From an uncultured Rhodospirillales bacterium (GTDB lineage Bacteria > Pseudomonadota > Alphaproteobacteria > Rhodospirillales > UBA2165), in NCBI GenBank assembly GCA_913055735.1, contig CAJXKD010000003.1:6561-70560 (forward strand): DNA of 64,000 nucleotides, given 5' to 3'. Shown here piece by piece: positions 1-39,825 of this stretch (position 1 is its first letter; each line of letters begins with the position of its first letter). The notes under the pieces were generated by a model. It was not told the DNA's origin and made no database searches. It was given only the letters and a program-made list of their open reading frames with translations. A program made the translations under genes and the position numbers.

Positions 1-780
1 GCGGTTCTGACGAACACCAAAGGGACGGCCGGGCCCAGTTCCGTCACCGGCACTACGGTCGTCTCGGAGGGCACGCCGTCGGTTCGAATTGGCACGTCCT
101 GGGTGGATGTGCGGCTTACATACACGACGAGCGTCCCCCAACCGGGTGAAATCACCCTGCTGATCACTTGCCCCAATGGGACAACGCAGCCGGCCAATCC
201 GGATAGGGTCGGCTCCGGCTATGTCGAATACCTGATCGACAATCCTACCCCAGGAACTTATACGTCATCTGTCGTGGTCGGTGCTGGACATGTAAGCAGC
301 ACTACGATCGGCGGCGTCGATCACAGCCAGCAAGCAAGCCTGACTTACACGGATCCGGGCGACGTGCGGGTAGGCGGTACCGTAACGGTACCTTGCCGGG
401 TCCTGGATGCCGACGGCTCACCGGTGGAACGGTGGAGCCTTTCGGGACATGTCGAGTCACCACTGATCGATCCCGATACGGCGCTTGCGCAAAACCGGGC
501 GGAGCTGGATGCGCTCGACCTTAAACCGGAGGAAGAAGACGGGGAAATCAGCGACAATCAACGGATGCTGACACTGGATCAAATACGTGGGCCGAACAAC
601 CCGGTGATCCCACGCGCCCAGCTTCCGCTGTCGATCTCACACGGCGAGGGCGAGAACCGTTTCAGCTTCACGCCGCAGACAAAGGGCACCCACATCGCGC
701 AATTTATGGCGACGGGACACGCGCCCAAGGCCGGACGCGATTTCAGCCTCGTGCGCGTCGCGACCATAGCAGCCGACTAA
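1..780 (+). CDS. hypothetical protein, 5'-partial (continues upstream of window)
   Basis: Frame 1 has no stop from nt 1 to the TAA at 778-780. The tracked ORF 103..780 (GTG start) is therefore probably only the tail of a longer gene. The sequence is Thr/Val/Gly-rich and strand-like (GTYTSSVVVGAGH, TVTVPCRVLDADGSPVERWSL), which suggests beta-sandwich repeats. It is the first gene of the co-directional cluster. No family recognised. Confidence 0.6.
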   Translation, partial: AVLTNTKGTAGPSSVTGTTVVSEGTPSVRIGTSWVDVRLTYTTSVPQPGEITLLITCPNGTTQPANPDRVGSGYVEYLIDNPTPGTYTSSVVVGAGHVSSTTIGGVDHSQQASLTYTDPGDVRVGGTVTVPCRVLDADGSPVERWSLSGHVESPLIDPDTALAQNRAELDALDLKPEEEDGEISDNQRMLTLDQIRGPNNPVIPRAQLPLSISHGEGENRFSFTPQTKGTHIAQFMATGHAPKAGRDFSLVRVATIAAD

Positions 781-805
781 AACGCGCCATGCGGGAAGGC
801 GCTGC

Positions 806-1513
806 ATGATGGGAACGCCGTCAACCGGCCCGGCCGGCACGTTCACGCAGTACAGTACGACGAAGCTGTACTGCTATCCGGACGTGACGAGCCCACAGTT
901 GTTTTACTGGTGCACCGCGGAGACGCTGCCGTCGGAGCCGTTTTCCATCGCGCAGGCATGGGGCGGCGGCGCCTATGCGGGCTGGTTCCTGTTCGTCAGC
1001 GACCCCGCCGTCAATCTCGCCAATCCGAAAGCGGTCAGCCAGGCGATGGGGAATCTCGCCGAACCACCGGCGCAGAACAGCGGCGGGTTCCTGTGGCTGT
1101 ATGTCGACGGCGGGTCCGACCTCACTCTCCCGGTCTCCGGTGACGTATTGGCGGCGGGTGCGGTGTTCGGTACCTCGTCGGGACTGCATCAGCTCGAACT
1201 GAAGAAAGGTGCACCAATAATCTTGCAGGGCGACGGAACCAGCTTCGCGATCCTGTATCCGGAAGGGCTTCCCCAGGCAGACCCGCCGGAGAAAAAAGCG
1301 GCGTTCCCCATCGTACTTGATCTGCTGGGGTTGAATGCGGGCCGGTTCTCGTTCACCGGGTTCCAGCCCTACGGCGACATTTATTATCAGTATGATTTGG
1401 TCGTCGATCCGCTGGATCCGGCCGGGAGTTCCAGCACCTTCGCGCGCTACGCGATCCAACTCGTCCCCACCGGCGAGGCGTTTCCCGCCTATGCCATTCG
1501 GCCGCTGTCGTAG
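806..1513 (+). CDS. hypothetical protein (235 aa)
   Basis: The ATG is preceded by GGGAAGG about 9 nt upstream. It starts 25 nt after the previous stop and ends 11 nt before the next start. Codon style matches its neighbours. The N-terminus carries STGPAGT, a GPTG-like motif. No recognisable catalytic or sorting motif. Confidence 0.7.
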   Translation: MMGTPSTGPAGTFTQYSTTKLYCYPDVTSPQLFYWCTAETLPSEPFSIAQAWGGGAYAGWFLFVSDPAVNLANPKAVSQAMGNLAEPPAQNSGGFLWLYVDGGSDLTLPVSGDVLAAGAVFGTSSGLHQLELKKGAPIILQGDGTSFAILYPEGLPQADPPEKKAAFPIVLDLLGLNAGRFSFTGFQPYGDIYYQYDLVVDPLDPAGSSSTFARYAIQLVPTGEAFPAYAIRPLS

Positions 1514-1524
1514 GGAGGCGCGCG

Positions 1525-4440
1525 ATGGCAGGTAACAGAGACCGGCTCCCGCAAAACCCCGACGGCCCCCTGGCCGCTCCCCAGAGTGCCGGTCCCACGC
1601 CCTTCGGGGAGCTGTGCTACGTTCTGCAGGACGAAACCGGCGAACGTTGCCAGCCGGTTGCCTTTACCGGCGAGCCGTCCGCCACCGGACCGTTCCTGTT
1701 TTCGTCTCCGCTGCGTACGATCTACAACGATCCAGTCTATCTGGAACCGCAGGGCGACGCGGGTTCCCGGAATTGTGTGCGGCCGAGCCCGACGGGTCCC
1801 ATGTATTATGCCGCGCCGAGCGGGTCCTTCACCCTGGTGATATCGGGAGAGACGGCGGGGCAGGGGAAAACCCATTACTTGTTGTGCGGTCTGTCCGGTA
1901 CCGAAAATATTGCGTTTCAGACCGGTGACGTGCTCACCCTTTTTCCGTCCAAGCCGGCTTACGCCGGAACGTTTCCCGTGTTCGGCCCCACCGCCACACC
2001 TCCGGCGGCGGGCGAAGATTTGCTCAGCGACCGGTACACGACATCCTGGGCCGTCGTGACCCCCGGACCGAGCAGCACGTCCGGAAAGACCACCTATTAT
2101 GCGCAGCCGCAGCAGGCGCCGTTGTTCCTTCCCGGCGCAACGTCGGTGACCGGGGCGACGGGGGCGACGATCCTCGACCTGTACCCCGCACCCGCTGCCG
2201 AGTTCGGTCCCACCGCCGCGGCCGGGCCGACCGGCCTATCCTTTCCGCTGTTTCCTTATGCCGGTGTCGAGAAGGTTGGTCCGACGTCTATGACCGACGG
2301 CATCCCCGCGTTTACCGCCGAGGACATGGAGCTTTTCGAGCAGCAGGTTCTGGGACCGACACGGCGTGCCGCCATCGCCGCGGCGGGCGGGACAGGTCCT
2401 ATCGGCGCCGCCGACGATGCGGGCGCGACCCTGACCACGACGCCGCAGGGTTTTCTGACTACCGTCAGCGGCCTGCAATGGCAGAAGGTCGTGCTCGCCA
2501 GCAGCAGTCCCACCGGGCCGGAAAACCCGCCACCGCTCCAGTTCACCGACCTGACCAAAGACCTTCAGAACGCGCTGCAGACCAATCAGCTTTTTCTCGT
2601 CGTGACAAAGAAGGCGCCGCTCGGGGCATTTCAGGAAATTCTTAGCATCGAGGGATGGCCGTTCATCTTCAACGTTGGATCGCCGTCGGGCACGACGGAT
2701 TTCTCCAACGTTCTGGTTTTTAAGTTCCGGCCCGGTGCGCTCGTCGACCTCGTCGCCTCGCCGTCTGCCTGGACACAGGCTGAGACCTTCAACGAGACGG
2801 AAAACGTCGCCCCCGTTTCGTCCTGGTTGCAGGCTTACTTCAGCCAAGCGCTGAGTTGGGTGAACGAGTATCCCGACTTTCAGGATTTCGTCGACATCAT
2901 CACCAATCCCGGTTGGACCGGTGTCCTCGCCCTCAAGACGACCATCGACCTAGACGAATTCCCGGCACAGCTCAAGGGACTGCTCGGCGGCATCGACCTC
3001 AGCGAGTTCGACGCACACCATGTCGGAATAGAGGTGAACTTCGTCGACGTGCAAGATGGCCAACTCGTCGCCCCGCAGAGTTCGCTATTCGCCCTGATCA
3101 ACTATGTCAGCCCGGCTTATGCGCACGAACACAACCTGCCGACCTCGGCGGGTGCAACAGGTACGACGGGCGGCACGGATCCGACCGGGCCAACAGGCGC
3201 GACGGGGCCGGCTGCCTCCGGCCCCTACGATTTCAGTGTCGAAGTGCTGCAGGTCCTGTTCGAGAATTCGAAGATCAAGGATTTCTTCAGCCGTATAAAA
3301 TTGACGGCGTCGAGTTGGTTCGACGAGCAGGCGACGGTAGAGACCGACGCGTCCGGCGCGAGCCTGCCGTCCTACGACATCGAACTCGACGGCCATTACG
3401 AGGACCATCACGGCCATCCCAGCTACACCTTCGTCACGGCCAAGGGACAGCATTATACGTTCGGACTCGACAGCGCGATCCTGAACTATCTGGAGGTCGA
3501 GAAGGCGCAGTTCGTCACCGAGCGCAGCAAGACGGCGACGGGTCCAACCGCCACGACGGACAGCATTCAGACGGCCTTCAACTTCTGGGGCTATATGAAT
3601 TTCAAGCCGCTGCCGGGCTTCGACATCTTCTCGTTCGGCAGTCCCACCGGCGCGGTCCAGGACGGGCAGGGGCTCTATTTCTCGAACCTGTCCGTCGGCA
3701 TGGACTTCGAAGTGATCAGCGGCACGGGTCCGACCGCGGGACCGCCCACCGTGCAGGACCGCGCTTTCACCTTCGAACCTAGCGGCATGGCGTTCGACCC
3801 GTCGCTCAGCACCTTGCGGCCCGGCAGTCTCCTGTCCGGGTTCCCGATGGCGATCCAAGGACTTATTCCCGGCGTTTCGGGGGCCAGTGGGCCGGGGCCG
3901 CAGCCGTCGGCGATGGGCTACCGCGCGATCACCTTGCCGCCCGAGGCACAGGTCGGGCCGCTCGGGAGTCAATGGTACGCGCTGCAGCTCCATCTCCAAA
4001 TGGGCAGCATGGGGGCGCTGGCCGCGAAGGCCGGGTTCGTCGGCAACGTGCTCGCCGCGTGGAGCCCGTCGGCCCCGGCGCAGGCGATGCTGGGCATCAA
4101 GCTGCCCGGCGGCGACAATTCCGGCTTCTCGCTGGAAAACGTCCTCAAGCTCAAGATCGGCGACATCGCCTTTGTGCAGGAGGCGGCGCCCACGGGCCCG
4201 ACCGGCGCCACCGGGGCGACGGGAGCAACGGGGCCAACGGGACCGGCCGGCGGCGGCCGCTACATGCTGCAGATGAAACATCTGGGGCTCAGCCTCGTCG
4301 GCGTCACGTTCCCGCCGCACGGCAACACGGATCTGTATTTGTTCGGCCCGACCGCGACGGCCGCGTCGCTGCACCCAAGCGATCTCGGCTGGTACGGCGC
4401 CTATGTCGGTCCCACCGCCCCCGGCGGGCCGACGGGTTGA
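1525..4440 (+). CDS. giant hypothetical protein (971 aa) with scattered GPT/GPTG motifs and short Gly-X-Thr collagen-like runs
   Basis: Long uninterrupted ORF with a GGGAGG RBS 7 nt upstream. I counted at least 15 GPT-containing motifs, plus runs such as GPTGATGATGATGPTGPAGGG, and it ends ...GPTAPGGPTG*. No N-terminal signal peptide, TM segment or true P-loop seen. No family recognised. Confidence 0.85.
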   Translation: MAGNRDRLPQNPDGPLAAPQSAGPTPFGELCYVLQDETGERCQPVAFTGEPSATGPFLFSSPLRTIYNDPVYLEPQGDAGSRNCVRPSPTGPMYYAAPSGSFTLVISGETAGQGKTHYLLCGLSGTENIAFQTGDVLTLFPSKPAYAGTFPVFGPTATPPAAGEDLLSDRYTTSWAVVTPGPSSTSGKTTYYAQPQQAPLFLPGATSVTGATGATILDLYPAPAAEFGPTAAAGPTGLSFPLFPYAGVEKVGPTSMTDGIPAFTAEDMELFEQQVLGPTRRAAIAAAGGTGPIGAADDAGATLTTTPQGFLTTVSGLQWQKVVLASSSPTGPENPPPLQFTDLTKDLQNALQTNQLFLVVTKKAPLGAFQEILSIEGWPFIFNVGSPSGTTDFSNVLVFKFRPGALVDLVASPSAWTQAETFNETENVAPVSSWLQAYFSQALSWVNEYPDFQDFVDIITNPGWTGVLALKTTIDLDEFPAQLKGLLGGIDLSEFDAHHVGIEVNFVDVQDGQLVAPQSSLFALINYVSPAYAHEHNLPTSAGATGTTGGTDPTGPTGATGPAASGPYDFSVEVLQVLFENSKIKDFFSRIKLTASSWFDEQATVETDASGASLPSYDIELDGHYEDHHGHPSYTFVTAKGQHYTFGLDSAILNYLEVEKAQFVTERSKTATGPTATTDSIQTAFNFWGYMNFKPLPGFDIFSFGSPTGAVQDGQGLYFSNLSVGMDFEVISGTGPTAGPPTVQDRAFTFEPSGMAFDPSLSTLRPGSLLSGFPMAIQGLIPGVSGASGPGPQPSAMGYRAITLPPEAQVGPLGSQWYALQLHLQMGSMGALAAKAGFVGNVLAAWSPSAPAQAMLGIKLPGGDNSGFSLENVLKLKIGDIAFVQEAAPTGPTGATGATGATGPTGPAGGGRYMLQMKHLGLSLVGVTFPPHGNTDLYLFGPTATAASLHPSDLGWYGAYVGPTAPGGPTG
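3151..3213 (+). repeat. in-frame Gly-X-Thr triplet run (GATGTTGGTDPTGPTGATGPA) inside the 971-aa gene
   Basis: Direct reading of codons ggt gca aca ggt acg acg ggc ggc acg gat ccg acc ggg cca aca ggc gcg acg ggg ccg gct. The G-X-Y periodicity has one Asp interruption. Confidence 0.8.
4195..4257 (+). repeat. in-frame collagen-like Gly-X-Y run (GPT GAT GAT GAT GPT GPA GGG) inside the 971-aa gene
   Basis: Seven consecutive G-X-Y triplets read directly from the codons. Thr occupies Y in five of them. Confidence 0.85.
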
Positions 4441-4454
4441 GAGGAGAGGATGGT

Positions 4455-5846
4455 ATGAGACCGCTTACCTATTTAGCAGTCGATCCACCGGCAACGCTTC
4501 CGCGGCAGGGGAACTCTGGCCTTCGCGTTGACCTCTTGACGATCTTGGCGCCGACCGGGGCTACGGTCGGCGGATACAAACAATACACGTTGCCCAATTA
4601 CGTACAGATACTTGGTTTTCTGCAGAAGATAGTCGTCACGAACGAGGGCGGCGATAGCCCGGCCGGGAATCCAATTACGGTGGACGGTGCTAAGGATATT
4701 CTTACGGAGATGACGACCACGCAGAACAATCTGGGGCTGTCTGCGATTTACGGCGCGTTCCGCCGCAACCTGATGTCGGCGTACGGCCAGTTCTGCTCAT
4801 ATTGCGAACTGCCGGTCGGATCGAGCGGGCTGGCCGTCGAACACTTGCTTGCCAAATCGGTTTTTCCGGATATCGCGTGTAGTCCCGGCAACCTGCTTCT
4901 GGCTTGCCCAATGTGCAATTCTTTCAAGGGCACGGCGCCGACGCCGACCGGAGACGACGCTTATGACTGGCCCGTCGACTGGGCCAACTCCGAACCAGCG
5001 ATTCCCAATCCCCCGGTAACGTGGGACCAATACGGACAGATCAAAAACGTTCTCTACAATGCCTATATGTGGCCGCTCTACCAAGCAGCCTACAAAAATT
5101 TCAATCGAGCGCTGATGTATCAGGAGGCTGCGGGCGGCGCGTTCCAGAAGGCTGCAGGTTCTTTCGATTTTGCCGGTGTATCGATTGTTTCGACGGCAGG
5201 CGGCGTAATCAAAGCGGTGCTGCCAGAGGTGGCGCCTGGCCCTGTGAGTTTTACCGTCCAGGTCTGGGTGACAAGCGGAATGGCGGATTTTATTGGCCCC
5301 GACTCGGTTCTCACAAGCGATCCCACATTTCCTGCCCCACCCGCAGGCGTAGATCCCAACAGCAAGCAAATGGTTCCAGCATACACCGATACCAACGGGC
5401 AGGGCATGCTGAACCTCAATAACGACGACGCCAGTCAATCCTATACCGACCGGCGTATGTACAACCGCACCCTGGCCTGGTTTGCCGCCCTTGGTGCCCT
5501 GGACCGCTTGAACGATGCGATGGAAATCGGCGAACCCGCCTACAATTTAGTGATGCAGGAAGTCGCAAGCAGTGCGACGACGTCCGGCTTCTTCTCGATC
5601 TGGTTCGCGGTTTTCAACGCGAATGCGCCGACTGCGCCCGGCGACTTCGGACCTGTTGCCAACCCGCCGCCCGACGACCCAGGCAACATTCCGGATGCCA
5701 CCGTCGATTTTGTCAACGGCACGGTCAAACACGCGTACCCGCCGCCGCCACCGCCTCCACCGGCGCCACCAGCGGGTGTTGGTTTCCCCGGCACCAACGT
5801 CATTAATACGATTCCCGCGCCACCGGCGCCGCCGGAGGAGGAATAG
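4455..5846 (+). CDS. HNH endonuclease-domain protein, paralogue 1 (463 aa), Pro-rich C-terminus
   Basis: ATG at 4455 (MRPLTYL) has a GAGGAGAGG RBS. The tracked ORF 3972..5846 extends upstream only by overlapping the previous gene out of frame. HNH/zinc-finger motif: FCSYCELPVGSSGLAVEHLLAK...NLLLACPMCNSFKG. The C-terminus is PPPPPPPPAPPAGVGFPGTNVINTIPAPPAPPEEE. Confidence 0.85.
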   Translation: MRPLTYLAVDPPATLPRQGNSGLRVDLLTILAPTGATVGGYKQYTLPNYVQILGFLQKIVVTNEGGDSPAGNPITVDGAKDILTEMTTTQNNLGLSAIYGAFRRNLMSAYGQFCSYCELPVGSSGLAVEHLLAKSVFPDIACSPGNLLLACPMCNSFKGTAPTPTGDDAYDWPVDWANSEPAIPNPPVTWDQYGQIKNVLYNAYMWPLYQAAYKNFNRALMYQEAAGGAFQKAAGSFDFAGVSIVSTAGGVIKAVLPEVAPGPVSFTVQVWVTSGMADFIGPDSVLTSDPTFPAPPAGVDPNSKQMVPAYTDTNGQGMLNLNNDDASQSYTDRRMYNRTLAWFAALGALDRLNDAMEIGEPAYNLVMQEVASSATTSGFFSIWFAVFNANAPTAPGDFGPVANPPPDDPGNIPDATVDFVNGTVKHAYPPPPPPPPAPPAGVGFPGTNVINTIPAPPAPPEEE

Positions 5847-5915
5847 AGGTATGAAACGATGCAATCTTCAGACACCGCTTGCGGTGGGCCGACAGGTTGA
5901 GAGGAGGCCATTGTC

Positions 5916-7331
5916 ATGAGGCCGATCACGAAAATAGCCCCCACGTCGGCTCAGTATCCGGGTCCTGCGAATTATGGAGTGAATCTTGGCAATCCGATTG
6001 TCACTTTTCTTATAAATTCTGGCGTCGTGCATTCGACGACACCGACTTCAATCACCTTTGCACAATACAATGCTGGTCTTGTTAAAATTCAGAACCGATT
6101 GGTAATGCGTAAGGGGAATAATCCTACTACATCTGAAGCTGGTGATCTTAAGGTTGATCTAACCACTAAAAGTGGTGGCGTTTTCGCACTCTCCTCAATT
6201 TATGGGACGGCGAGATTGCATCTGATATCCAATCTGGGCGCATTTTGCTCTTTTTGTGAAATGCCGGTTGGGGACAGTAACTTGGCAGTTGAGCACATGA
6301 TTCCCAAAGATAAATTTTTGATCGAAGCCACTGACTACGACAACTTTCTGCTTTGCTGTCCGACTTGCAATTCCTGTAAGGAAGAATTTCCATGCACTGA
6401 CAACTATAGCATACCTATTGGATGGGCGGACACAGCAATACCGCCATGTCCTGCCGGTACACTTCCCTTAAGTACCCGGACACTCAACAAATTTCCGAGC
6501 ACCGTCGGTTCGTATCAGCAACTAACATCGGTCCTCCGTAATGCCTACATGTGGCCTATATACCCTGGTGCATACAGAAATTTTCACCACGAAATTCAGT
6601 CGAACCCTAATTCTTTACCACTAACACACACACCGGCCCAGAAGACCACTTGGTTAGCTGGTTTTGTACCGGTTACGGCGGCGCCTGATCCCGCCAATGA
6701 CCGGATAACGGCCGTACAAGATGGACAGGTGACTGCAATCGTCGGCGGAGGGACAACCGCCGAGATTGTGCGTGTCAGGGTGAGTGGTGTGGGGGGAACG
6801 ATAGCCGCGAATTCAGTGCCCGCACCCAATCCCGCCGCGGTAGCTGGATACCCCTCAGCCGGTGCGGCTCCAAACAGTCATGCGATGGTTGAGAAAAGAA
6901 ATTCTACGACCGGGGATGGCATGCTCAATCTCAATAAGATGGACATCGATTGGAGTTTCTCTGATCGGCGGGTCGTCAACCGCACAAAGGCATGGTTCGC
7001 GGCTTTGTCCGCGTTTAACCGGCTGAACATCGCGCAGGGCGTCACCGGTGCCGCCAGTGCGGCCTACCAACTTATGTTACAGGAGGTTTGCAGTACCGCC
7101 GGAGCGATGGGTTTCTTCTCGACATGGGTCAGGGCTTTTGACGGTCAGGCGCCCGCGACGCCCGGTCCAACCGGTCCAATCCCTGGCGGGGCGCCGCCGG
7201 GTCCACCACCGCCACCCAACGTTGTCCCAAATGCTACGGTCGATTTCGTCATGCGATCCACCGGGAACGTTACTCCGGCACCCGCGGTTGTCGAATTTCC
7301 CGGCACCAATATCGCCAACACCATTCCCTGA
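5916..7331 (+). CDS. HNH endonuclease-domain protein, paralogue 2 (471 aa), mosaic GC content
   Basis: Starts MRPITKI with a GAGGAGG RBS. HNH motif: FCSFCEMPVGDSNLAVEHMIPK...NFLLCCPTCNSCKE. It shares blocks with paralogue 1: NAYMWP(L/I)Y, G(Q/D)GMLNLN, AWFAAL, VDFV...FPGTN(V/I)xNTIP. The 5' third is visibly AT-richer than the rest of the operon. Confidence 0.85.
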   Translation: MRPITKIAPTSAQYPGPANYGVNLGNPIVTFLINSGVVHSTTPTSITFAQYNAGLVKIQNRLVMRKGNNPTTSEAGDLKVDLTTKSGGVFALSSIYGTARLHLISNLGAFCSFCEMPVGDSNLAVEHMIPKDKFLIEATDYDNFLLCCPTCNSCKEEFPCTDNYSIPIGWADTAIPPCPAGTLPLSTRTLNKFPSTVGSYQQLTSVLRNAYMWPIYPGAYRNFHHEIQSNPNSLPLTHTPAQKTTWLAGFVPVTAAPDPANDRITAVQDGQVTAIVGGGTTAEIVRVRVSGVGGTIAANSVPAPNPAAVAGYPSAGAAPNSHAMVEKRNSTTGDGMLNLNKMDIDWSFSDRRVVNRTKAWFAALSAFNRLNIAQGVTGAASAAYQLMLQEVCSTAGAMGFFSTWVRAFDGQAPATPGPTGPIPGGAPPGPPPPPNVVPNATVDFVMRSTGNVTPAPAVVEFPGTNIANTIP

Positions 7332-7346
7332 ACGCGGAGAGAGGCA

Positions 7347-8207
7347 ATGAGACCATTGGACAAACAGATGCCACCCGTCTGGGAGGCCTATCCCGACGGA
7401 CAACGCGTGCCAACCGGTGTTGCGAATAACCACTTGCTCGACGCGGTCGGGGAATATTGCTCCTACTGCGAGATGCGGCTCGGCGGCGGGGCGATCCTGC
7501 ATCACAAGCTGCAGCGAGAGATGCCCGAATCCGTGCCGAAGGAGGATTGGCGGCACCTGTTGCTGATCTGCTACGACTGCCGCCGCCACATGACGGAAGA
7601 CGCGCTCACGCCGGACCGGCTCGATGATTACCTCTGGCCGGACGCCCACCCGTCCTTCAGCCTGCACGCGGACAGCCCGTTCAGGTACCGCCTGAAACCG
7701 GTTCCCTATGTCATCACCGACGAGGACGGCAGCCGGGAAGAACATGACGAGGAATTCGTTTTCGTCGAGGTCAATCCGGAGGCGGGCGCGGAGCTTCGGC
7801 GCAAGGCGGCCAACACCATTGAGCTGTTCAAGCTGAACAGCCCCTATTACGACGATTCCCGCCACATCCTGGAGGTGCCGCGCAGCGATCACCTGCAGGT
7901 GCTGTGCAACCGGCTGCAACAGCGCACGCAGGCGTGGACACGGGCACAGGCGTCGGTTTCCCGGGTCCGGCAAATGCGGGAGCTTCCCGAGGTGCGGGAG
8001 AACCCGGATCTGGAGCAACTCCTTCATCAGCAGATCACTCACACCGCGCACGGTAAGGGCAACTGGTCTGTGTGGATGACTGTGTTCTGGCAGGAATTGG
8101 AGGAAAAGGATGTGCTCGAACGCATCTTCCTTGAAATGCCGGAGGACAATCCCGGCTTCCACTTTGCCGGTACGCATTTCGGCCAACTGCGCTGGGAGGC
8201 GCTATGA
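7347..8207 (+). CDS. HNH endonuclease-domain protein, paralogue 3 (286 aa, short form)
   Basis: Starts MRPLDKQ. Motif: YCSYCEMRLGGGAILHHKL...HLLLICYDCRRHM (CxxC...HH...CxxC). It lacks the Pro-rich tail. Its stop overlaps the next start (ATGA at 8204-8207). Confidence 0.8.
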   Translation: MRPLDKQMPPVWEAYPDGQRVPTGVANNHLLDAVGEYCSYCEMRLGGGAILHHKLQREMPESVPKEDWRHLLLICYDCRRHMTEDALTPDRLDDYLWPDAHPSFSLHADSPFRYRLKPVPYVITDEDGSREEHDEEFVFVEVNPEAGAELRRKAANTIELFKLNSPYYDDSRHILEVPRSDHLQVLCNRLQQRTQAWTRAQASVSRVRQMRELPEVRENPDLEQLLHQQITHTAHGKGNWSVWMTVFWQELEEKDVLERIFLEMPEDNPGFHFAGTHFGQLRWEAL

Positions 8208-12802: not shown

Positions 12803-15800
12803 CCAGCCTCACACCTCCACCCCCGCCTCCCGGCGCAACGGGAATTACCGCCGGCGCCACTGGGCCGCTGAACGCGTTTATGCTGATCGACTACATGAAC
12901 CTGATCATCAAGGAGGGCGTGAACGACGCGGTTTCGGAATTCCGTGCGACGACCGTTGTTCCCGGCACAACCGGACCGAAAAGCCTCTCGCAACTCGCCG
13001 CCGCCTATCCCCCGAATAGCCAAGCGCCGACTGGGGTTTCGCGTATCGTTCAGATTGCACAGGCGAATCAGCAGATCCCGCTCGCTACGGGAACGACGAT
13101 GACGTTCTCCGACGTTTCCTTCGTTCCGTCCCCGGGGGCGACGCTGGGCGGAATTGCACAACGGTTCGACGTTGCCGCCACCGCGCTTGCCAGCGTGGAA
13201 AACAATCCTCAGCTCAGCTATCAGACGTTGCCGTCCGGCGTGACCGCGGTTCAGCTTGCGGGACCAACCGGCGAGACGGCCGTCGGCGTGACCGGCGGCG
13301 CGTCATTCCAGGATGTCGCACGGCGGTACGGCATCACAGGCCCGACGGCAATCGACTCCGCGCTGATCTGGCCCAACCTGGATGTGGTGGATCGCTTGCT
13401 AGTGCCCGGACAGCCGGTACACATCCCGACCTTCTCGCAGGCTGTGACCGGACCAGTTTCTCTGGCTTCGCTCGCAGCGTACTACAACTTGTCGCTGGAT
13501 GCGGTTGCGACACAGAACGCAGATACGCCGATTTTCGGTGAAACCGCCTCGGTAGCGGTCCCCCAGGCGCAAACGATGACGGTCGGACATCTGATCAGTC
13601 GTCTGATGGCAGATGGGTTTGACCAGAAGATCGCCGGCCTGGCGGGACGTGCGCTGCTGCATGGTCTTCGCGTTCCCTATCCCGGCCAGAGGGCTGGTCC
13701 GCGGGTGGGACTGTTTGAAGTCACCGGTCAGCAAGTGGGCGTGTCCGGGTTGACGGCAGACAGCTTGGTGACGCTGGGCTACCCCGGGCCGACCGCGCCG
13801 GCGTGGCTTCATTTTGCGGCGCTGTCGCCGACCGGGGTGACAGCGCACGGAAGCAGCCTTCCCATCGGCGTTACGGGTGCGACCGGGACGACCGGCGCGA
13901 CAGGTATAACCGGAACGACCGGTGCCACGGGCCCTGCGCCGCATCCACATGTCGCCTTTCCGGTCGGTGTAACCGGCATGGCCTATATCGAGCGCCTCGC
14001 CGGTGCCACGGCGTATAGTCCGACCGGCAGTTTTGTAGAGTTGCAGCCGTATCATATCTATCAGCGAAGCTTCACGTTACCGCACAGCATCACATGGAAC
14101 GTGCCACAAAATCCACCCGGCCCTACCGGGATCGTTCCTGTTGGTCCGACCGGTTCGTATGGGAGCCCTGCCGCGACTGGCGATACCGGTGCGTCTCCGA
14201 TGGGGACCTATTTCATTCGGGCCTTCCCCAGCAAGCTTCGGGACCTGCTTCAGACGGGGGCAACCGGTTCTAAGACGACGCCTTTCTCGGTGATTAAGCG
14301 CGATAATCCGGCACCTGGTGCGACGGCGGCGGTGGAGCAGGTCACTCCATACGCATTCACAACAATGATCCAGGTGAATGTTTCGCAGGTGCCGCAGGAG
14401 AACGGAACCAGCGAATTCGTGTACGCCCTTCAGGGAACCAGCGAGGCCGATAAATCGCTGCTTGCGACGCTTCTCGCACAACCGATGGCGCCGCAGGCCA
14501 TCTTCCTACTCTATCCCGCGCGGGGCGCGCAGAAAGGCCAGAAAAACGCTCCCGTCGCGCTTAGTTCCGACCAGGAGCCAACGGCCTTCATTTTCCACAC
14601 CAACCCGACGACAACCTCCGTGCCGCATGGCGGCGAGATCTGGTCTGCAAACGCGCGTTTGCTGGCCGGGGGCGTAGTCAGCAGCCAAGCCGTCAATTTC
14701 CTTCAGCAGATATGGGAGGTTGACGAGGTGAACCAGGGTGGGTTCTACCTCTACTATCGTACGGCGGAGGGGAAGGGGCTGCCATCCTACCTGTTCAGCC
14801 AGAAGCCGAACGCGACGGTGACGGTCCTCATGCCTTATGGCGTTGCGTCGGAAAACACACCCTCGGGCCTCGGATACCTGATTCCGCGTTATGTGAACAG
14901 CATCGTGCTCGACACCGCCGCGAGCGCAAAAAATCAGGGCTTGTATGTTGAGCCCGTCGGGCCCGCGTCGGGATTTGATGCGGCGCTTCAGGTCAAGACA
15001 CCGACCATACATCCCGGCACGGTGGCATTTGAGATCAGCCGTCCAAACCCGAACTACGCGCCTGGTCCCACGGTGACGACAGCGCACGAACTCGATGAAC
15101 TCTACAGCATCGTCGAGGCGAACATTCCGGCACAGGCGGGTTGGGCGGCTAGCCGGCCCGGTCTGCCGGTTGGTCCGCGCAATCCCAGTCCCGGCATCAC
15201 CGCGGGACCCTCGCCGAGTTTTACCTATGACATCGGTTTCCCGATATCGCACCTTGCCATCGGACCGCCCGGCGTCACCGGTCCGACGGGCACCACCGGG
15301 CCGAGTGCGCTTAACAACCCGTATGCAGGTGTCGGCGAGACCCTCACCGTCCAGTTCGATCTGTTCGACATTTTTGGAAATACCCTGCGACCATCGGACG
15401 GCCCCGCTTGGCTTTCGACAACGACGCTGCCCGGCTACACCGATTATCTGGTCGGAATAGACAATTGGCCGCAGGTGGGCCGAAGCTATTCCGTCGACAG
15501 CGCGCAGAACATTCAGATCAACCTCACGTTTAATGCCAACTATTTCTATGAAATCTATGAGGCGGACAAGGGAACGCAGCCGGACTACGTCTCGGCCGTG
15601 CTTGATGCGGCGGAGACAGTGCAGCAAACGTTCGAAAAAATATACTACCAGCTCAGTCGTCCGGATGTTTCCGCGACCATCGTTACGAGCTTTGATCCGG
15701 ATAGCAGTAACGATGTGACGGTGTCGCTTCGCGATTTCGTGACGGCCTGCTGGGTCAAAGTCTGCGGGATCGTCGAGACGCTCCGGAAGAAGAGAGCCCT

Positions 15801-18369
15801 CTCGCCTACGACCCCCGTAACGCCGCCGCCGCTGTCGGGTCCTCTGTCCGATGACAGCGGTCTCGATATTTTCCCAATGACCGTCGGTCTCCGCATCGCA
15901 CGCGCGCGCAATATCGACCCAGCGTTCGCCGACGTTCCCGGCGTTCGGCAGGTCACGAGCTCCATCCCGCCAATGACACTTTCCGGGGCAACGGGCACGA
16001 ACCAGCTGGGGCCCTTTGCGCAAGCGTTCGAAGAAGCGTTTCCGGTCTTCAAGGTGGCAACCGGCGAGGCGTCCTCGTCGGCAACCGCGGCAGCTCCTGC
16101 CACCGGTGCAAAAGCGATATGGCTTGTTCGGCTGGGGGCGACCGCCGCTGATGATGGCATCTACCTGAACCTCCAGGATGATCCCATTTACTATGCGCCC
16201 AGACCTGTGGCAACCAGCCTGGTGAGCCGGACGGGCATTGCGATTTATGACATTGAGAAGGGGAAAACCCTTCAGCAGATGATTGATGCCGATCCGGGGT
16301 GCACTGGCGGGTACTGTCACCTCAAAAACTTTAGCGCCGTCGATCTTGGTACGCTCGCACGGCAGTTTCTTGCGGCGATCGATCAAGCGCTTGCCCCCGA
16401 GATGGCCGCCGCCGCCGCGATCGCCTCACCAGACGATTTTGCAAGCCTCATGTCATCCAAGGAAGCACTCGCGGCGATCTTGTCCACAGCGGACAGCGGC
16501 GGTCCGGCCACGACACCCCAGGTGATGCCGGTGTTCCAGGATTCCAAGCCTCCGGCAGGCGGTACGACGGCTGCCGGATCGGCGCTCGAGAACGAACTAC
16601 TGGCTGAGCTCAGCAACCTCCATAAGGTAGAGACAATTGTCCAATGTTCGGTGGAGTCCCATTGGAACAATCCGACGCAGACAGACAGCGTTGTGGAGTT
16701 TTTTGGCAAACTGTCGCCGCAGGTTCAGACGCCGAAGCCTGCGTTTGCGTTCTCCGGCTCGGCAATTCCGGTAACCCAGGGGGCGACGGCGACGCAGCTT
16801 ACAGCGTTGTTTAATGTCAATCAGACGCATCTCAAATCCTCCGGACCCACCGGAACCGGGGCGCCCGATTTCGTCGAAGACGCCACCTTCCATGTCACCG
16901 CACTAGCACACAACATTGGGCCGGGTGCGGTTACCGGATACCACAATACAGACTGGCTCTCCTTCGTCGAACCCTTCGAGCTGGGTAACGGCGTCGCGCC
17001 GGCCGTGACCGCGACGCCTCCGCCGCTCGGGTTGGATATTCCGTTGCCGCTGCGTGCCTATCCGACGGCGCCGTCACTGAAGGGGCAGGCCGACGTTCCT
17101 GCGCTACTGCAATTCGGCCAAGTTCCCAGCAATGCCGAGATTTCGATCAGCGATGCCGCGACTTGGACCTATGAGTACAGCTACCAGTACATTGGCGCCT
17201 CGCAAGACACGATTTCGACCTCTCTCCAATTCAACGTGGCTGGCACGACCGGTGCCGTTGGCTCATATCTCGGCATGGGCACGGACCTTGCTGCGGACTT
17301 GCTCCAGTTCGCTGCTATATATCCCGGGCTCGCCGCAGATCTCGCGCACCTGCCGGAGTTCCTTGAGGATAACCAAGCATCGACACCGACTGCTGTCAGC
17401 GCGAAACTTGCGCTTACGTCGCTTTGTCAGATCGCGGTATACGTCGCGCAAGCCTGGAAGGGGTGGTCCGAATTCCAACTCACTTACACTTATCAGTACG
17501 AAATCGAGCAGGCGCCTACCGGCCCGACTGCCGCCCCCCTGTTGTCCGTTCAGGTCAGCAAAGTACAGGGATCTTCCGGTATCTACCCCAATGCAGAAAT
17601 CCCAATGCCCGGGATAGAAATCGAGGGCTTCACCACGCATCCGACGCCGCCGATTTCTGCGACTACCGTTGGGCCCGGAGCGACGATGATGAATTACACG
17701 TTCTCCACCACCGGACCTAGCGGTCCCGTATATCTCGGCTGGGAGGATCGGGCATCGTACCCAATACGCACGGTCAGCTTCGCGGGGCTGAACGTGCTGA
17801 AACAGGAAAACGCCTGGGCCGGTGTCGGCGTTGTTCGAAACAAAGACCTAGAACGGACCGGCCCAACCGGCGGCTGGCGTCCGGTTGATCCCGCCTTCAT
17901 CTATGAGACCCCGCTGATCCGGTTCGTGAACGTGCTCAACCCGTTTCTGGACCCCGCGGGAGAGATTATTCTCTCTGACGAGTTCGACCCGGTAGAGAAA
18001 ACGCTCGAAGGCTACTTAACGGCGCTGTTTGCAAAATTGTTCAAAGACCTTTCGCCGTCAGCTTCGGTATTGGTTAAGCTGGCGGTGAGCTACGGCTATA
18101 TGCTGTCGGAGAACGATTTGCCGGTCGAATTGCCGATGTTTCTTACCACACCGCACAATTTTCCGCAGACCGGAGACCCCGCATATATCACAGCGGTGTC
18201 CGACCGGATAACATACTGGTTCAGTGAGCGCGGCATTAAGCCGGCGAAGGTTAGCAACGGTTTCATCGCGTTCGACCTGACAATCTTTTCGACGCTGAGC
18301 GAGAGCCAGCTTCCAATGTTGCGGCTGCGGCAGCTCCTGCTGTACTGCGACAAAGTGAATTGGAGCTAA
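12799..18369 (+). CDS. giant hypothetical protein (1856 aa) with N-terminal LysM-like repeats and GPTG / Gly-X-Thr runs
   Basis: Uninterrupted 5.6-kb ORF overlapping the upstream stop (ATGA). The N-terminus is MTSLTPPPPPPGATGITAGATGP. It has four degenerate LysM-like repeats, at least 20 GPT/GxTG motifs, and the run GVTGATGTTGATGITGTTGATGPA. No signal peptide seen. Confidence 0.85.
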   Translation: MTSLTPPPPPPGATGITAGATGPLNAFMLIDYMNLIIKEGVNDAVSEFRATTVVPGTTGPKSLSQLAAAYPPNSQAPTGVSRIVQIAQANQQIPLATGTTMTFSDVSFVPSPGATLGGIAQRFDVAATALASVENNPQLSYQTLPSGVTAVQLAGPTGETAVGVTGGASFQDVARRYGITGPTAIDSALIWPNLDVVDRLLVPGQPVHIPTFSQAVTGPVSLASLAAYYNLSLDAVATQNADTPIFGETASVAVPQAQTMTVGHLISRLMADGFDQKIAGLAGRALLHGLRVPYPGQRAGPRVGLFEVTGQQVGVSGLTADSLVTLGYPGPTAPAWLHFAALSPTGVTAHGSSLPIGVTGATGTTGATGITGTTGATGPAPHPHVAFPVGVTGMAYIERLAGATAYSPTGSFVELQPYHIYQRSFTLPHSITWNVPQNPPGPTGIVPVGPTGSYGSPAATGDTGASPMGTYFIRAFPSKLRDLLQTGATGSKTTPFSVIKRDNPAPGATAAVEQVTPYAFTTMIQVNVSQVPQENGTSEFVYALQGTSEADKSLLATLLAQPMAPQAIFLLYPARGAQKGQKNAPVALSSDQEPTAFIFHTNPTTTSVPHGGEIWSANARLLAGGVVSSQAVNFLQQIWEVDEVNQGGFYLYYRTAEGKGLPSYLFSQKPNATVTVLMPYGVASENTPSGLGYLIPRYVNSIVLDTAASAKNQGLYVEPVGPASGFDAALQVKTPTIHPGTVAFEISRPNPNYAPGPTVTTAHELDELYSIVEANIPAQAGWAASRPGLPVGPRNPSPGITAGPSPSFTYDIGFPISHLAIGPPGVTGPTGTTGPSALNNPYAGVGETLTVQFDLFDIFGNTLRPSDGPAWLSTTTLPGYTDYLVGIDNWPQVGRSYSVDSAQNIQINLTFNANYFYEIYEADKGTQPDYVSAVLDAAETVQQTFEKIYYQLSRPDVSATIVTSFDPDSSNDVTVSLRDFVTACWVKVCGIVETLRKKRALSPTTPVTPPPLSGPLSDDSGLDIFPMTVGLRIARARNIDPAFADVPGVRQVTSSIPPMTLSGATGTNQLGPFAQAFEEAFPVFKVATGEASSSATAAAPATGAKAIWLVRLGATAADDGIYLNLQDDPIYYAPRPVATSLVSRTGIAIYDIEKGKTLQQMIDADPGCTGGYCHLKNFSAVDLGTLARQFLAAIDQALAPEMAAAAAIASPDDFASLMSSKEALAAILSTADSGGPATTPQVMPVFQDSKPPAGGTTAAGSALENELLAELSNLHKVETIVQCSVESHWNNPTQTDSVVEFFGKLSPQVQTPKPAFAFSGSAIPVTQGATATQLTALFNVNQTHLKSSGPTGTGAPDFVEDATFHVTALAHNIGPGAVTGYHNTDWLSFVEPFELGNGVAPAVTATPPPLGLDIPLPLRAYPTAPSLKGQADVPALLQFGQVPSNAEISISDAATWTYEYSYQYIGASQDTISTSLQFNVAGTTGAVGSYLGMGTDLAADLLQFAAIYPGLAADLAHLPEFLEDNQASTPTAVSAKLALTSLCQIAVYVAQAWKGWSEFQLTYTYQYEIEQAPTGPTAAPLLSVQVSKVQGSSGIYPNAEIPMPGIEIEGFTTHPTPPISATTVGPGATMMNYTFSTTGPSGPVYLGWEDRASYPIRTVSFAGLNVLKQENAWAGVGVVRNKDLERTGPTGGWRPVDPAFIYETPLIRFVNVLNPFLDPAGEIILSDEFDPVEKTLEGYLTALFAKLFKDLSPSASVLVKLAVSYGYMLSENDLPVELPMFLTTPHNFPQTGDPAYITAVSDRITYWFSERGIKPAKVSNGFIAFDLTIFSTLSESQLPMLRLRQLLLYCDKVNWS
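12955..13566 (+). other. four degenerate LysM-like repeats (domain-level annotation within the 1856-aa protein)
   Basis: Repeats: KSLSQLAAAY...IAQANQQIPLATG; ATLGGIAQRFDVAATALASVENNPQL; ASFQDVARRYGITGPTAIDSALIWPNLDVVDRLLVPGQPVHIP; VSLASLAAYYNLSLDAVATQNADTPIF...VAVP. They fit the LysM pattern (S/T)L..IA..Y.(I/L)....L...N......L..GQ.(L/V).IP by eye. Not HMM-verified. Confidence 0.5.
13867..13938 (+). repeat. in-frame collagen-like run, 8 triplets (GVT GAT GTT GAT GIT GTT GAT GPA)
   Basis: Read directly from the codons ggc gtt acg ggt gcg acc ggg acg acc ggc gcg aca ggt ata acc gga acg acc ggt gcc acg ggc cct gcg. Confidence 0.85.
15262..15306 (+). repeat. in-frame collagen-like run, 5 triplets (GPP GVT GPT GTT GPS)
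   Basis: Read directly from the codons, in frame with the 1856-aa ORF. Confidence 0.8.
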
Positions 18370-18373
18370 GCGG

Positions 18374-20263
18374 ATGAAACTCAGCGTCGTTCTCTACACA
18401 GAGGGGCTTCCCTTTACCGGTAATACGCTGGCGACACAGTCGCTTGGCGGTGCCGAGACAGCGTTTATCTATGTTGCGCGCGAACTCGCGCGGATGGGGC
18501 ACGACGTGGCTGTTTTCTGCCACTGCACACAGTCGGGCGCCTTCGATGGTGTCGACTACCGCGACCTCGCCGCGTTTCCAGCATGGTGTGCCGGGGACAG
18601 GTGCGATCTCTTCATCTGCTCCCGCTATTTCGAGATCTTTGGCGCGCCGATCCCGGCCACCATGAAGATTCTGTGGTGTCACGATATGTATGGGCCGGAT
18701 CACTTCCAGCGGCTGGAAATGTTTTTGCCCCGCATAAACGAAGTGTATTGCCTTTCCGAATTTCACCGAAGTCATTTTATTCGGCACCTTCCGGCGTGGG
18801 AGCCGAAGATAAAGAAAGTTCACAATGGCATCGATTTTTCCCTCGTAAATGAAGTGTCGGGCGGGATCGAAGAATCTCACAAGGTTATGTATACGTCCCG
18901 CCCAGAAAGGGGGTTGCTGCGGGCCCTGGAAATTTATGAGCGACACGGCGATCCGACGCTGGAGTTTGTGGCTTGTACCTATGATTATCCGTGGAAGCAG
19001 GGGGGTATCGATGCCATTGAGCAGGCTTGTAAAGCCAGAATTGACGATCTCTGTAAGCGAGGCTTTCCCGTTGCGATGGGATCGTTTTCAAAGCGTGAGT
19101 TGTATCGCCATCTCACCGAAAGCAAGGCGGTTATTTACCCAGCCGAAGTCGCGGAGATTATGCCGATTTCCGCTTTGGAAGCATTAGCGTGTCGTACCGT
19201 TTATCTTGCACCCGACCACTCTGCCTTTCAGGAGATCGTTCCGTACGAGCGAATAGATCTCGAGAACACGGAACGATGGCTGGAACAGCTCCACAATGTC
19301 TTACATAACGACTCAATGCGGGCGGAGCTGGCCGAATATGGATGGCGGCACGTACAGTTCTACAGTTGGGCCGGCGTTGCCAAGACATTTACGAGTAGTG
19401 ACGCTCTGAACGACCTTCGGATCCTGCACACGTCAAAGGTAAAACAGGCCGATCCCAAGAATTTAAACGGCGTTGGCCCGTTGATAAGCTGCGTGATGCC
19501 CACCTGGGACGGGGTCATTTTGGCCAAGGAAGCGATCCGATGCTTCATCGGGCAACGTTACTCCAACAGAGAGCTTGTGATTGTGGCAGGTGGCAGTGAA
19601 CGCAGTCAACTGGCGGTCTCCTCTTATGTCTCGGGGCTAGGACGTGACGACATCAGATGCATATGTCTGCGGGGTGAGGGGGCGACGCTGGGTGACATGC
19701 GGAACATTGGTTTGGACAATGCAAGGGGGGAGGTCATTTGTCAGTGGGACGATGACGGCCTCTATCATCCGTCGCGGCTGGAAGTGCAAATCGGTGCCAT
19801 GCTTGATGCTGACGCGTCTGCCTGTTTTTTGACCGATCACCTGCAGTATTTCGCGATGCAGCAGGAGCTATTTTGGATTGACCGGACCGTCGAGGGACAG
19901 AATCATGGAGAGAGCGCTCAATTCGTCCCCTCGCTGATGATCGACAAAAATGCGGGATTTCGATATGTGGAACACGGGGATGAAGAGTTTGCCACGATTG
20001 GTGACGAAAGGCGTGATTCCATCACGGAACAGCTTAAAACAGTCAATCTGTCGCAGTACGGATATGTCTATATTTGCCGTAGTCATCCGAGAAGCACGCT
20101 ACCGGAAAAATATCACAGAAAGATAAATGATTATGCTGCTCCGGTAGACTACATGGCCCAGCGTTGTAGCGATCTCCTTCGGGCGCTGTCAGAATATCGA
20201 CTCCCAACTCCCATATCGGTCAAAGCGCGTGACGGCAGAGAGGTGATTAACTATCGGGTTTGA
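18374..20263 (+). CDS. bifunctional glycosyltransferase (N-terminal GT4/GT-B-like domain fused to C-terminal GT2/GT-A-like domain), 629 aa
   Basis: Starts 4 nt after the 1856-aa stop, with a GGAG RBS. The N-terminus has GGAETAFIYVARELARMGHDV, typical of group-1 glycosyltransferases. The C-terminal half has ISCVMPTWDG...ELVIVAGGS...CQWDDDGLYHPSRL (GT2 DxD-type). GC is visibly lower than in the giant genes. Confidence 0.75.
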   Translation: MKLSVVLYTEGLPFTGNTLATQSLGGAETAFIYVARELARMGHDVAVFCHCTQSGAFDGVDYRDLAAFPAWCAGDRCDLFICSRYFEIFGAPIPATMKILWCHDMYGPDHFQRLEMFLPRINEVYCLSEFHRSHFIRHLPAWEPKIKKVHNGIDFSLVNEVSGGIEESHKVMYTSRPERGLLRALEIYERHGDPTLEFVACTYDYPWKQGGIDAIEQACKARIDDLCKRGFPVAMGSFSKRELYRHLTESKAVIYPAEVAEIMPISALEALACRTVYLAPDHSAFQEIVPYERIDLENTERWLEQLHNVLHNDSMRAELAEYGWRHVQFYSWAGVAKTFTSSDALNDLRILHTSKVKQADPKNLNGVGPLISCVMPTWDGVILAKEAIRCFIGQRYSNRELVIVAGGSERSQLAVSSYVSGLGRDDIRCICLRGEGATLGDMRNIGLDNARGEVICQWDDDGLYHPSRLEVQIGAMLDADASACFLTDHLQYFAMQQELFWIDRTVEGQNHGESAQFVPSLMIDKNAGFRYVEHGDEEFATIGDERRDSITEQLKTVNLSQYGYVYICRSHPRSTLPEKYHRKINDYAAPVDYMAQRCSDLLRALSEYRLPTPISVKARDGREVINYRV

Positions 20264-20325: not shown

Positions 20326-20379
20326 GAGCTTGCCTACTCGAACGAGTCTGCAAAATCCAAATCCTGCCCCCGCAACCAA
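20326..20379 (+). repeat. 54-nt repeat element, copy 1
   Basis: gagcttgcctactcgaacgagtctgcaaaatccaaatcctgcccccgcaaccaa. It matches 32292-32345 at 49 of 54 positions, with perfect 25-nt and 13-nt cores. It lies 63 nt after the glycosyltransferase stop and just upstream of a terminator hairpin. Confidence 0.9.
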
Positions 20380-20385
20380 TTTTAG

Positions 20386-38371: not shown

Positions 38372-38444
38372 TTGGCGTCTGTCGAGATGATTGGCTGATA
38401 CCGGAACGGAATCATGGCCAGCTTCGCTTTGGGAGAGACAGATT

Positions 38445-39179: not shown

Positions 39180-39190
39180 GGACAACGGTA

Positions 39191-39775: not shown

Positions 39776-39825
39776 TCCGAAGCAGCGGGCGAGGACATAG
39801 CCATTCCGGAAACAGATACAACATA

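Follow-up and report, generated by a model that had tools for sequence, protein, structure and literature searches.

A tRNA-Met island of an uncultured Rhodospirillales bacterium carries an operon that is a split-gene variant of a widespread cassette of giant proteins and exchangeable enzymes

The first 20 kb of a 64,000-nucleotide (nt) stretch of DNA from an uncultured Rhodospirillales bacterium (assembly GCA_913055735.1, contig CAJXKD010000003.1, positions 6,561 to 70,560; hereafter the window) encode giant proteins, HNH nucleases and a fused glycosyltransferase, which a preliminary description based on the DNA letters had proposed as a candidate undescribed system. Window positions 1-20263 correspond to the 3' 20 kb of a 25.0-kb operon of 11 co-directional genes on the plus strand. 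Sequence comparisons show this operon to be a split-gene, decorated variant of a widespread three-component cassette, here termed A-B-C. Nine of its genes lie in the window, the first one truncated at the window edge; the common orientation of the genes had been recognized correctly, but not their number, which had been given as ten. In order, these are the 3' part of a gene for a 438-amino-acid (aa) vWA and Ig-like protein (ending at 780; Pfam VWA, VWA_2), p235 (806-1513, with orthologues in loci L006 and L008) as the detached N-terminal domain and p971 (1525-4440) as the main body of protein family A, and two long PtuB/TIGR02646-like HNH nucleases, HNH463 (4455-5846) and HNH471 (5916-7331), as first and second copy in the B slot. 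They are followed by HNH286 (7347-8207), a short TIGR02646-type HNH protein, by p1532 (8204-12802) and p1856 (12799-18369), the N- and C-terminal halves of giant protein C, and by the final operon gene, which encodes a 629-aa glycosyltransferase (18374-20263). The intergenic gaps are 25, 11, 14, 69, 15, -4, -4 and 4 nt, with ATGA stop/start overlaps at 8204-8207 and 12799-12802, and a GGAG/GAGG-type motif lies 5-12 nt upstream of each start codon in the window. The sequence thus bears out the tight spacing, overlaps and ribosome binding sites reported before, as well as the share of about 65% attributed to the three giants, since the p971, p1532 and p1856 genes account for 64.6% of the 20,263 nt. 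Pattern scans found no Walker A motif ([AG]xxxxGK[ST]) in any operon protein, and no signal peptides were detected in A, C or the collagen-like proteins, in agreement with what had been stated for the giants; these proteins have no transmembrane helices either. The 235-, 971-, 1532- and 1856-aa proteins have no match in Pfam, NCBIfam or PADLOC, and promoter and terminator scans gave signals no higher than background.

The unit had been expected to extend beyond the window edge, and it does. Upstream DNA was recovered from JGI metagenome contigs with the same sequence, with window position 1 corresponding to position 9196 of contig L003. These contigs add a GT2-TPR-GT2 glycosyltransferase gene (626 aa), the collagen-like gene p748 and the 5' end of the 438-aa vWA gene, which starts 536 nt upstream of the window. 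The operon therefore comprises 11 genes in 25.0 kb, in the order GT2-TPR-GT2, p748, vWA paralogue, p235 and p971, three HNH genes, p1532 and p1856, GT4-GT2. Located 5' of the first glycosyltransferase gene are approximately 800 nt of non-coding DNA, preceded by a tRNA-Met gene and an rRNA operon. No open reading frame of 100 aa or more occurs in the interval between tRNA-Met and this gene. The 24-nt sequence around the 3' end of tRNA-Met, CAAATCCTGCCCCCGCAACCAATT, is present in exact, single copies at L003 3617-3640 and at window 20358-20381 (plus strand), with a chance expectation of 0 for an exact repeat of this length. The left copy, at the tRNA-Met 3' end, forms the left border, and the right, attR-like copy lies 95 nt past the last operon stop codon. 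The operon is the sole cargo of this horizontally acquired, 25,960-bp island at the tRNA-Met gene. No integrase domain was found among the island proteins. An empty-site search with the tRNA-Met end and the right flank, in which the pattern reached only 5 nt past the repeat, gave two metagenome matches that have the tRNA alone in common with this site. Directly upstream of the island, L003 1-3640 holds the rRNA operon (tRNA-Ala, 23S, 5S), then tRNA-Met. The strain-level identity of 99.86-99.98% leaves too little variation for selection analysis. In contigs from different metagenome samples, the collagen-like gene encodes 748 aa (L003 6333-8579) or 754 aa (L004 3680-5944). As the remaining locus is 99.86% identical between L003 and L004, with one gap, the number of Gly-X-Thr repeats seems to vary between populations.

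The small p235 and the larger p971 are the split form of a core protein A of about 1200 aa, because p235 matches the N-terminal domain of p971 homologues: its residues 12-184 match a hidden Markov model (HMM), built from the N-terminal 300 aa of family A members of full length (>1050 aa), with an E-value of 4.7e-18. A word-index search with p971 gave 105 homologues of 1100-1250 aa, all annotated as 'hypothetical' and none with a Pfam domain. A confident AlphaFold model of p971 built from 65 sequences (pLDDT 83.9, pTM 0.78) is mainly beta, with a long strand meander. Foldseek searches of this model against PDB and BFVD gave nothing below an E-value of 1e-3, and the family A profile has no match among PDB sequences. 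A common origin of A and C as paralogues was ruled out by hhalign (probability ≤0.12%).

In the same way, p1532 and p1856 are the split form of the LysM giant C of 2800-4500 aa, because p1856 aligns with the C-terminal half of p1532-type giants. It aligns end to end with residues 1280-3160 of homologue P0025, the main segment being 1651-3160 (E-value 3e-256). A HMMER search with p1532 residues 333-1532 gave 1210 cluster representatives, of which 859 have E-values below 1e-30. These are mostly proteins of 3000-4400 aa, and named relatives carry only the annotations 'hypothetical' or 'LysM peptidoglycan-binding domain-containing protein'. A word-index search with p1532 returned only the query itself, although homologues with 50-57% identity exist, which reflects a limit of the tool and is not evidence for an orphan. 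Thus, the giants are unassignable, as claimed earlier, in the sense that they belong to no characterised family, but they are members of large uncharacterised ones. Repeated modules of a helix and a beta-hairpin make up the N-terminal part of p1532 and are followed by a conserved core (FEVLYKRI...GFPYN...GGFYFG). The model of this core (pLDDT 76.5, pTM 0.40) contains six strands of 18-21 residues each. Its best Foldseek matches in PDB, LptD, SlpA and ApoB100, have TM-scores ≤0.16 at a root-mean-square deviation of approximately 30 Å and represent generic beta-sheet resemblance only. For A and C overall, TM-scores were ≤0.16 for significant PDB matches and 0.28 at most, and the C-core profile has no match among PDB sequences.

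Tandem LysM-like repeats are located in p1856 at about aa 55-260 (nt 12961-13579). Positions 148-285 of A8, a family profile of the C-terminal half, match only LysM domains in PDB (4uz2, 1.7e-07; LytE, 8.4e-06; Ecp6, 8.2e-05), and Pfam detects LysM in P0025 (7.1e-08) but makes no call on p1856 alone. Canonical LysM repeats are thus present in the C family according to the match to solved domains, and the earlier mention of LysM-like repeats holds at the level of the family profile, though not as a Pfam call on p1856 itself. Downstream of these repeats, p1856 contains approximately 1500 aa of conserved sequence without assigned family. The collagen-like Gly-X-Thr tracts described before were recovered, with 14 GxTG tracts in p971 and 26 in p1856 compared to 0-2 in the other proteins compared. 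The longest tract of p1856 comprises aa 357-381 (13867-13941), and similar ones lie in p971 at nt 3151-3204 and 4195-4248, in loops modelled with a pLDDT <50. Such short tracts inside p971 and p1856 are confined to this clade.

One known family approaches this part of the operon. In locus L009, a 1677-aa giant with DUF6603 (PF20248) lies after the same pair of long and short HNH genes, and its N-terminal approximately 760 aa consist of repeat modules that also occur in p1532. Membership of p1532 in DUF6603 was nevertheless rejected, and its conserved core is not detectably of this family: neither p1532 nor p1856 has a Pfam match, the hhalign probability is 0.8% and, in the L009 protein, the A3 HMM does not extend into DUF6603. 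There is no mention of DUF6603 or PF20248 in the searched literature.

Relatives of C were found by a pattern scan in approximately 330 stretches of species-representative genomes. They belong mostly to Bacteroidota, but also to Acidobacteriota, Planctomycetota, Chloroflexota, Actinomycetota, Bacillota, Chlorobiales and several Pseudomonadota. A and C occur together in 76 of the 86 fetched loci, and minimal loci run A-B-C without intervening genes. Starting from homologues of the short HNH protein, syntenic loci were located in Oceanibaculum nanhaiense as well as on several metagenome contigs. The operon of Oceanibaculum shares its first and last genes with the island operon, the last one being the orthologue of the terminal glycosyltransferase, and downstream of it lie an HTH gene and two genes, or gene fragments, for tyrosine integrases (L094 23729-26267). 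Co-occurrence and synteny outside this genome, which had been proposed as a check, were therefore found in O. nanhaiense, an ENA contig and many loci of Bacteroidota, Acidobacteriota and other groups. In Chitinophaga sp. sic0106 (L015), a cassette of collagen, A, two HNH, C and large glycosyltransferase genes lies between tRNA-Arg(acg) genes of the same orientation at 1549-1623 and 22665-22739, which suggests a second tRNA-associated island. Most related loci do not adjoin tRNAs, and nine copies are on plasmids or megaplasmids. The conjugative plasmid pBRH02 (L102, 389-15968) of Mycetohabitans rhizoxinica, an endosymbiont of Rhizopus, carries the cassette with its giant split at a different place (1114 and 2614 aa), and the interval from A to C holds no recognisable nuclease. 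Streptomyces sp. P1-3 (L095) encodes A (1158 aa) directly before a giant of >4000 aa, without a B gene, and has unassigned proteins of 295 and 226 aa upstream of A and a YcaO/methyltransferase cluster nearby.

One to four genes separate A and C in 70 of the 76 loci that contain both. They belong to four unrelated enzyme classes and occur as tandem arrays of two to four copies in 19 loci. The most frequent class (32 loci) is DNase I-like with an endonuclease/exonuclease/phosphatase fold; its catalytic residues are all invariant, and its profile matches DNase I with 2.4e-13. Proteins of approximately 500 aa without PDB or Pfam match fill the slot in 18 loci; their motifs may resemble an EarP-like GT-B fold, an assumption on which nothing here relies. 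A metallo-beta-lactamase class with an HxHxDH motif, whose nearest relative is the ComEC nuclease domain (9.2e-10), is present in 11 loci, and the PtuB-like HNH class found in this operon in seven. B is thus an interchangeable enzyme slot, filled mostly by DNases of differing fold. In HNH-class loci, a long and a short HNH protein are always paired, and the operon studied here has two long copies. Three HNH paralogues had been proposed for it, and Pfam HNH (4.3e-06 for HNH471 and 0.0034 for HNH463 upstream) and the PADLOC PtuB model PDLC00315 (1e-26 to 1.6e-29 for all three) confirm this. NCBIfam scores are only 16-26 bits for PtuB (cut-off 150) and 18-23 bits for TIGR02646 (cut-off 52). The B-slot HNH proteins are therefore best regarded as members of the same superfamily as PtuB and not as its equivalogs. 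HNH463 and HNH471 share 36% identity and both have intact HNH motifs, which in HNH463 (CxxC...EH...N...CxxC) are accompanied by a Pro-rich tail. In HNH286, the four zinc cysteines and the catalytic His are invariant, and the Asn and CN..K positions are substituted. Within this clade the long HNH proteins diverge fastest, with 35-41% identity compared to 65-67% for A and 64% between HNH286 and its orthologues.

The remaining genes of the operon form a recurrent accessory module of a collagen-like protein and glycosyltransferases. The protein p748 has a short N-terminus, approximately 270 aa of Gly-X-Thr sequence with 76 GxTG motifs and a vWA and Ig-like C-terminal part. The 438-aa vWA protein is a paralogue of its residues 317-748 (40% identity) with an intact metal-ion-dependent adhesion site motif (DRSAS). 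Glycosyltransferase genes are located at both ends of the operon, GT2-TPR-GT2 first and the GT4/GT1 and GT2 fusion last; the two-domain structure of the latter had been recognized before and is confirmed by Pfam. Approximately 18 related loci encode a collagen-like protein without signal peptide, whose globular head is a vWA, Kelch or unassigned domain, and nearly always also carry glycosyltransferases. The C-terminal head of the Chitinophaga-type collagen protein has no PDB match. In 39 other loci, A is preceded by two small paralogous beta-rich proteins of 110-160 aa without Pfam match, the second of which has a hydrophobic, signal-peptide-like N-terminus (e.g. L050, L075 and L082 from Bacteroidota). 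All but one of these 39 loci lack a collagen-like gene, and none has a clustered glycosyltransferase. Loci of a cyanobacterial type additionally encode an 1800-aa protein with a GH81 domain. The architecture of p748, its missing signal peptide and the dedicated glycosyltransferases resemble BclA, which forms the nap of the Bacillus exosporium, and collagen-like phage tail fibres. BclA and phage fibres also lack signal peptides. The head of p748 is vWA and Ig-like, and elsewhere Kelch or an unassigned globular domain, in contrast to the C1q-like head of BclA. There is also no exosporium or phage context, and the glycosylation of p748 is presumed from the gene content.

The relationship of the HNH proteins to PtuB raises the possibility that the cassette serves intracellular defence against phages or plasmids, with A and C as giant sensors or scaffolds that would release or activate the nuclease on infection and so bring about abortive infection or the breakdown of foreign DNA. 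All three B proteins share with PtuB of Septu and retron Ec78 an N-terminal zinc-ribbon/HNH core (MRP...GEYCSYCE...EH...LL.C..C) and a C-terminal helix region (G.WSVWMTVF). In addition to the PADLOC matches and the affinity to the TIGR02646 retron/Septu HNH family, the exchange of effectors among nuclease folds is typical of defence systems, and the patchy distribution across phyla, with copies on islands and plasmids, agrees with such a role. Defence would also account for the absent signal peptides and would not require an immunity gene, and the Lysinibacillus plasmid copy adjoins DUF2726, HNH, vWA and DUF2075 genes. However, the long HNH copies differ from PtuB by insertions of 200-300 aa and Pro-rich tails, their partners A and C are unrelated to Septu components and have no PADLOC match, and neither a PtuA ATPase nor any other nucleoside triphosphatase (NTPase) was found in the operon with PADLOC, Pfam or NCBIfam. 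A helicase is likewise absent. No function in cytoplasmic immunity is known for the conserved canonical LysM repeats, the collagen-like fibres with vWA or Kelch heads, the dedicated glycosyltransferases or the GH81 partners, and tandem divergent effector paralogues are uncommon in defence operons. A location in defence islands, named earlier as a point to check, was not confirmed: PADLOC families gave at most two matches each, and nearly always a single one, to 148 flanking proteins of 60 loci, so the loci are not enriched in such islands. A defence function is therefore considered unlikely, albeit a serious alternative.

The LysM, collagen-like, vWA, Kelch, TIG and GH81 domains, together with the glycosyltransferases, would fit a structure of the cell surface or matrix. 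A layer of glycosylated collagen-like fibres, anchored to peptidoglycan by the LysM giant, would then be exported by an unrecognised route, and the associated nucleases would act on extracellular DNA, either to remodel biofilm or to scavenge phosphate. The signal-peptide-like N-terminus of the second small paired protein upstream of A in many Bacteroidota loci agrees with this, as do the exopolysaccharide locus and the genes for a secretin and for a secreted giant lectin protein elsewhere in the window. It is difficult to reconcile with the lack of any signal peptide, lipobox, sortase signal or recognisable C-terminal domain of the type IX secretion system in A, C and the collagen proteins. 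Moreover, a self-contained island that is mobile across monoderm and diderm phyla is unlike a housekeeping envelope structure, and the exchange of nuclease folds suits conflict more than scavenging. A surface or matrix structure thus seems improbable.

The att-like repeats at a tRNA gene and the integrases beside the Oceanibaculum copy might instead point to a virus-like or satellite mobile element that has gone unrecognised, to which the operon would contribute structural or accessory parts: a particle built of the giants, fibres made of the collagen-like proteins, and DNA processing by the HNH proteins. Collagen-like fibres occur in phage tails, and the C core is present in four IMG/VR contigs. 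These four are among 2.9 million contigs, and all matches lie at or near contig ends, so that they may represent host flank wrongly included in the provirus call. The island encodes no capsid, portal, terminase, replication protein or integrase, tblastn of 50,697 phage records gave no match, BFVD contains no matching fold and most loci are away from tRNAs. Such an element is accordingly regarded as very improbable. Cytoplasmic assembly, fibres, release by lysis, a cargo and frequent location on islands are also characteristic of tailocins and extracellular contractile injection systems (eCIS). In contrast to these, neither a sheath, tube, baseplate or spike nor a tape-measure protein or an AAA+ ATPase was detected with Pfam, PHROGs or Foldseek. 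An origin from phage tails, tailocins or eCIS was ruled out, as PHROG tail-fibre matches are confined to the Gly-X-Thr tracts. Confident homology of the giants to a characterised machine, which would have refuted the earlier proposal, was thus not found with Pfam, NCBIfam, PHROGs, PADLOC, PDB, Foldseek and phage tblastn. Because no characterised homology was found and the genes are syntenic elsewhere, the designation as a candidate undescribed system stands.

Two further groups of systems resemble the cassette in logic or in their enzymes. The Tc (ABC) toxins, like A-B-C in logic only, are multi-subunit sets of several thousand residues without signal peptides, with a variable enzyme and large all-beta assemblies. 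The cassette contains no RHS/YD repeats and no VRP1, TcA, TcB or TcC Pfam domains, and has no Foldseek match to Tc structures; its enzyme is encoded by a separate gene, whereas in Tc it is a C-terminal hypervariable region. Nuclease bacteriocins (colicins E2/E7/E9, S-type pyocins) and CdtB share with it HNH or DNase I-like DNases. Nuclease bacteriocins deploy these against other cells, and colicins lack a signal peptide and exit by lysis. Unlike them, the cassette lacks an adjacent immunity or lysis gene as well as any fused domain for receptor binding or translocation, and its carrier proteins are 10-20 times larger and unrelated.

Of the two readings offered in the preliminary description, a defence module and an exported fibrous assembly with nuclease cargo, the evidence leans to the latter. 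An extracellular function is favoured because LysM, fibres with adhesive heads, glycosyltransferases and GH81 are typical of locations outside the cytoplasm, and because two nuclease classes are nearest to DNase I and the ComEC nuclease domain. These nearest solved relatives act outside the cytoplasm. Cytoplasmic assembly followed by release is favoured because fibres without signal peptides are typical of phage fibres and BclA. On the basis of domain context, we therefore tentatively prefer, as plausible but well short of assured, a glycan-binding, DNase-carrying complex that is built in the cytoplasm and acts outside the cell, bacteriocin-like but neither of phage nor of Tc type. In such a complex, A and C would assemble in the cytoplasm as a large carrier that keeps the DNase or DNases inactive. 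In the present variant, the carrier would bear trimeric collagen-like fibres with vWA heads, which the operon's own glycosyltransferases may glycosylate on Thr. The complex would leave the cell without a signal peptide, most simply through lysis of a subpopulation. LysM and the fibre heads would then bind cell walls containing N-acetylglucosamine, and the DNase would be brought to bear on a competitor or prey cell. It is conceivable, though somewhat doubtful, that A-B-C constitutes a new class of protein machine without relation to phage tails, Tc toxins or known secretion systems. The two giants, for which no known fold was detected, would then build a cytoplasmic particle that sequesters an exchangeable DNase or other enzyme, is released without a signal peptide, docks on cell walls via LysM and glycosylated collagen-like fibres and delivers the enzyme into other cells.

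Several observations weigh against a released, DNase-carrying complex. No recognisable lysis cassette, secretion system or immunity gene was found in the operon or in the minimal three-gene loci; there is no small open reading frame between the nuclease genes and C, and no holin or lysin was recognised with Pfam or PHROGs. A cytoplasmic DNase without inhibitor needs an explanation, and its sequestration by A or C is a postulate. The nearest named relatives of the HNH proteins are the defence effectors PtuB of Septu and retron Ec78. Six of the 76 loci with A and C have no B gene between them, approximately one quarter of the B slots hold the 500-aa class, to which no activity is assigned, and Foldseek gave no structural link of A or C to a translocator. 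The proposed mechanism is conjectural at every step.

The rest of the window lies outside the island. A gene at 20765-30040 (plus strand) encodes a 3091-aa protein with a signal peptide and four or so internal modules of approximately 450 aa. It also contains a coiled-coil stretch, Tectonin repeats (2.1e-23) and a Ricin-B lectin domain (1.3e-12). It was ruled out as a part of the system, as it is located beyond the att repeat and has neither a counterpart in the Oceanibaculum locus nor a C-family HMM match. Convergent with it is a gene for a 635-aa secretin (30101-32008, minus strand; Secretin 8.2e-26) with N-terminal TPR repeats. The secretin may serve the export of a nearby product; a link to the island was not found. 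A sulfur-oxidation cluster at approximately 38400-48100 encodes a thioredoxin-like protein, a SoxA/TsdA cytochrome c, a SoxB-like 5'-nucleotidase/metallophosphatase, a molybdopterin oxidoreductase, a dihaem cytochrome c and a flavocytochrome c sulfide dehydrogenase. Judged by this cluster, the host is probably a sulfur-oxidising proteobacterium. The stretch from approximately 48100 to 64000 is a PEP-CTERM-associated type of exopolysaccharide locus and includes a Wzy_C/O-antigen-ligase-like protein, a BBP2_2 beta-barrel porin (3.3e-103), a Wzz-GNVR-tyrosine-kinase and a Bac_transf priming transferase.

Within the libraries and literature searched, the nuclease superfamilies and analogues of the collagen and glycosyltransferase module are known, and the cassette as a whole and its two giants match nothing characterised; the searched literature holds no trace of them. 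Hundreds of species, spread over at least eight phyla, carry the cassette, which comprises 4500-6000 residues of conserved protein. As its giants have no detectable relative in PDB, the named families of Pfam or the defence catalogue, it represents a sizeable blind spot. The exchange of DNase folds, the carriage on islands and plasmids and the glycan-binding and fibre accessories characterise it as some form of conflict system. A nuclease-delivery particle, a defence system without NTPase or an envelope structure would each be a new result. Direct tests are possible in Flavobacterium, Chryseobacterium, Chitinophaga and Tenacibaculum, which are culturable and have minimal versions with three genes, and the assignment of a function would cover more than 1000 genes for giant proteins that are at present annotated as 'hypothetical' or 'LysM domain'.

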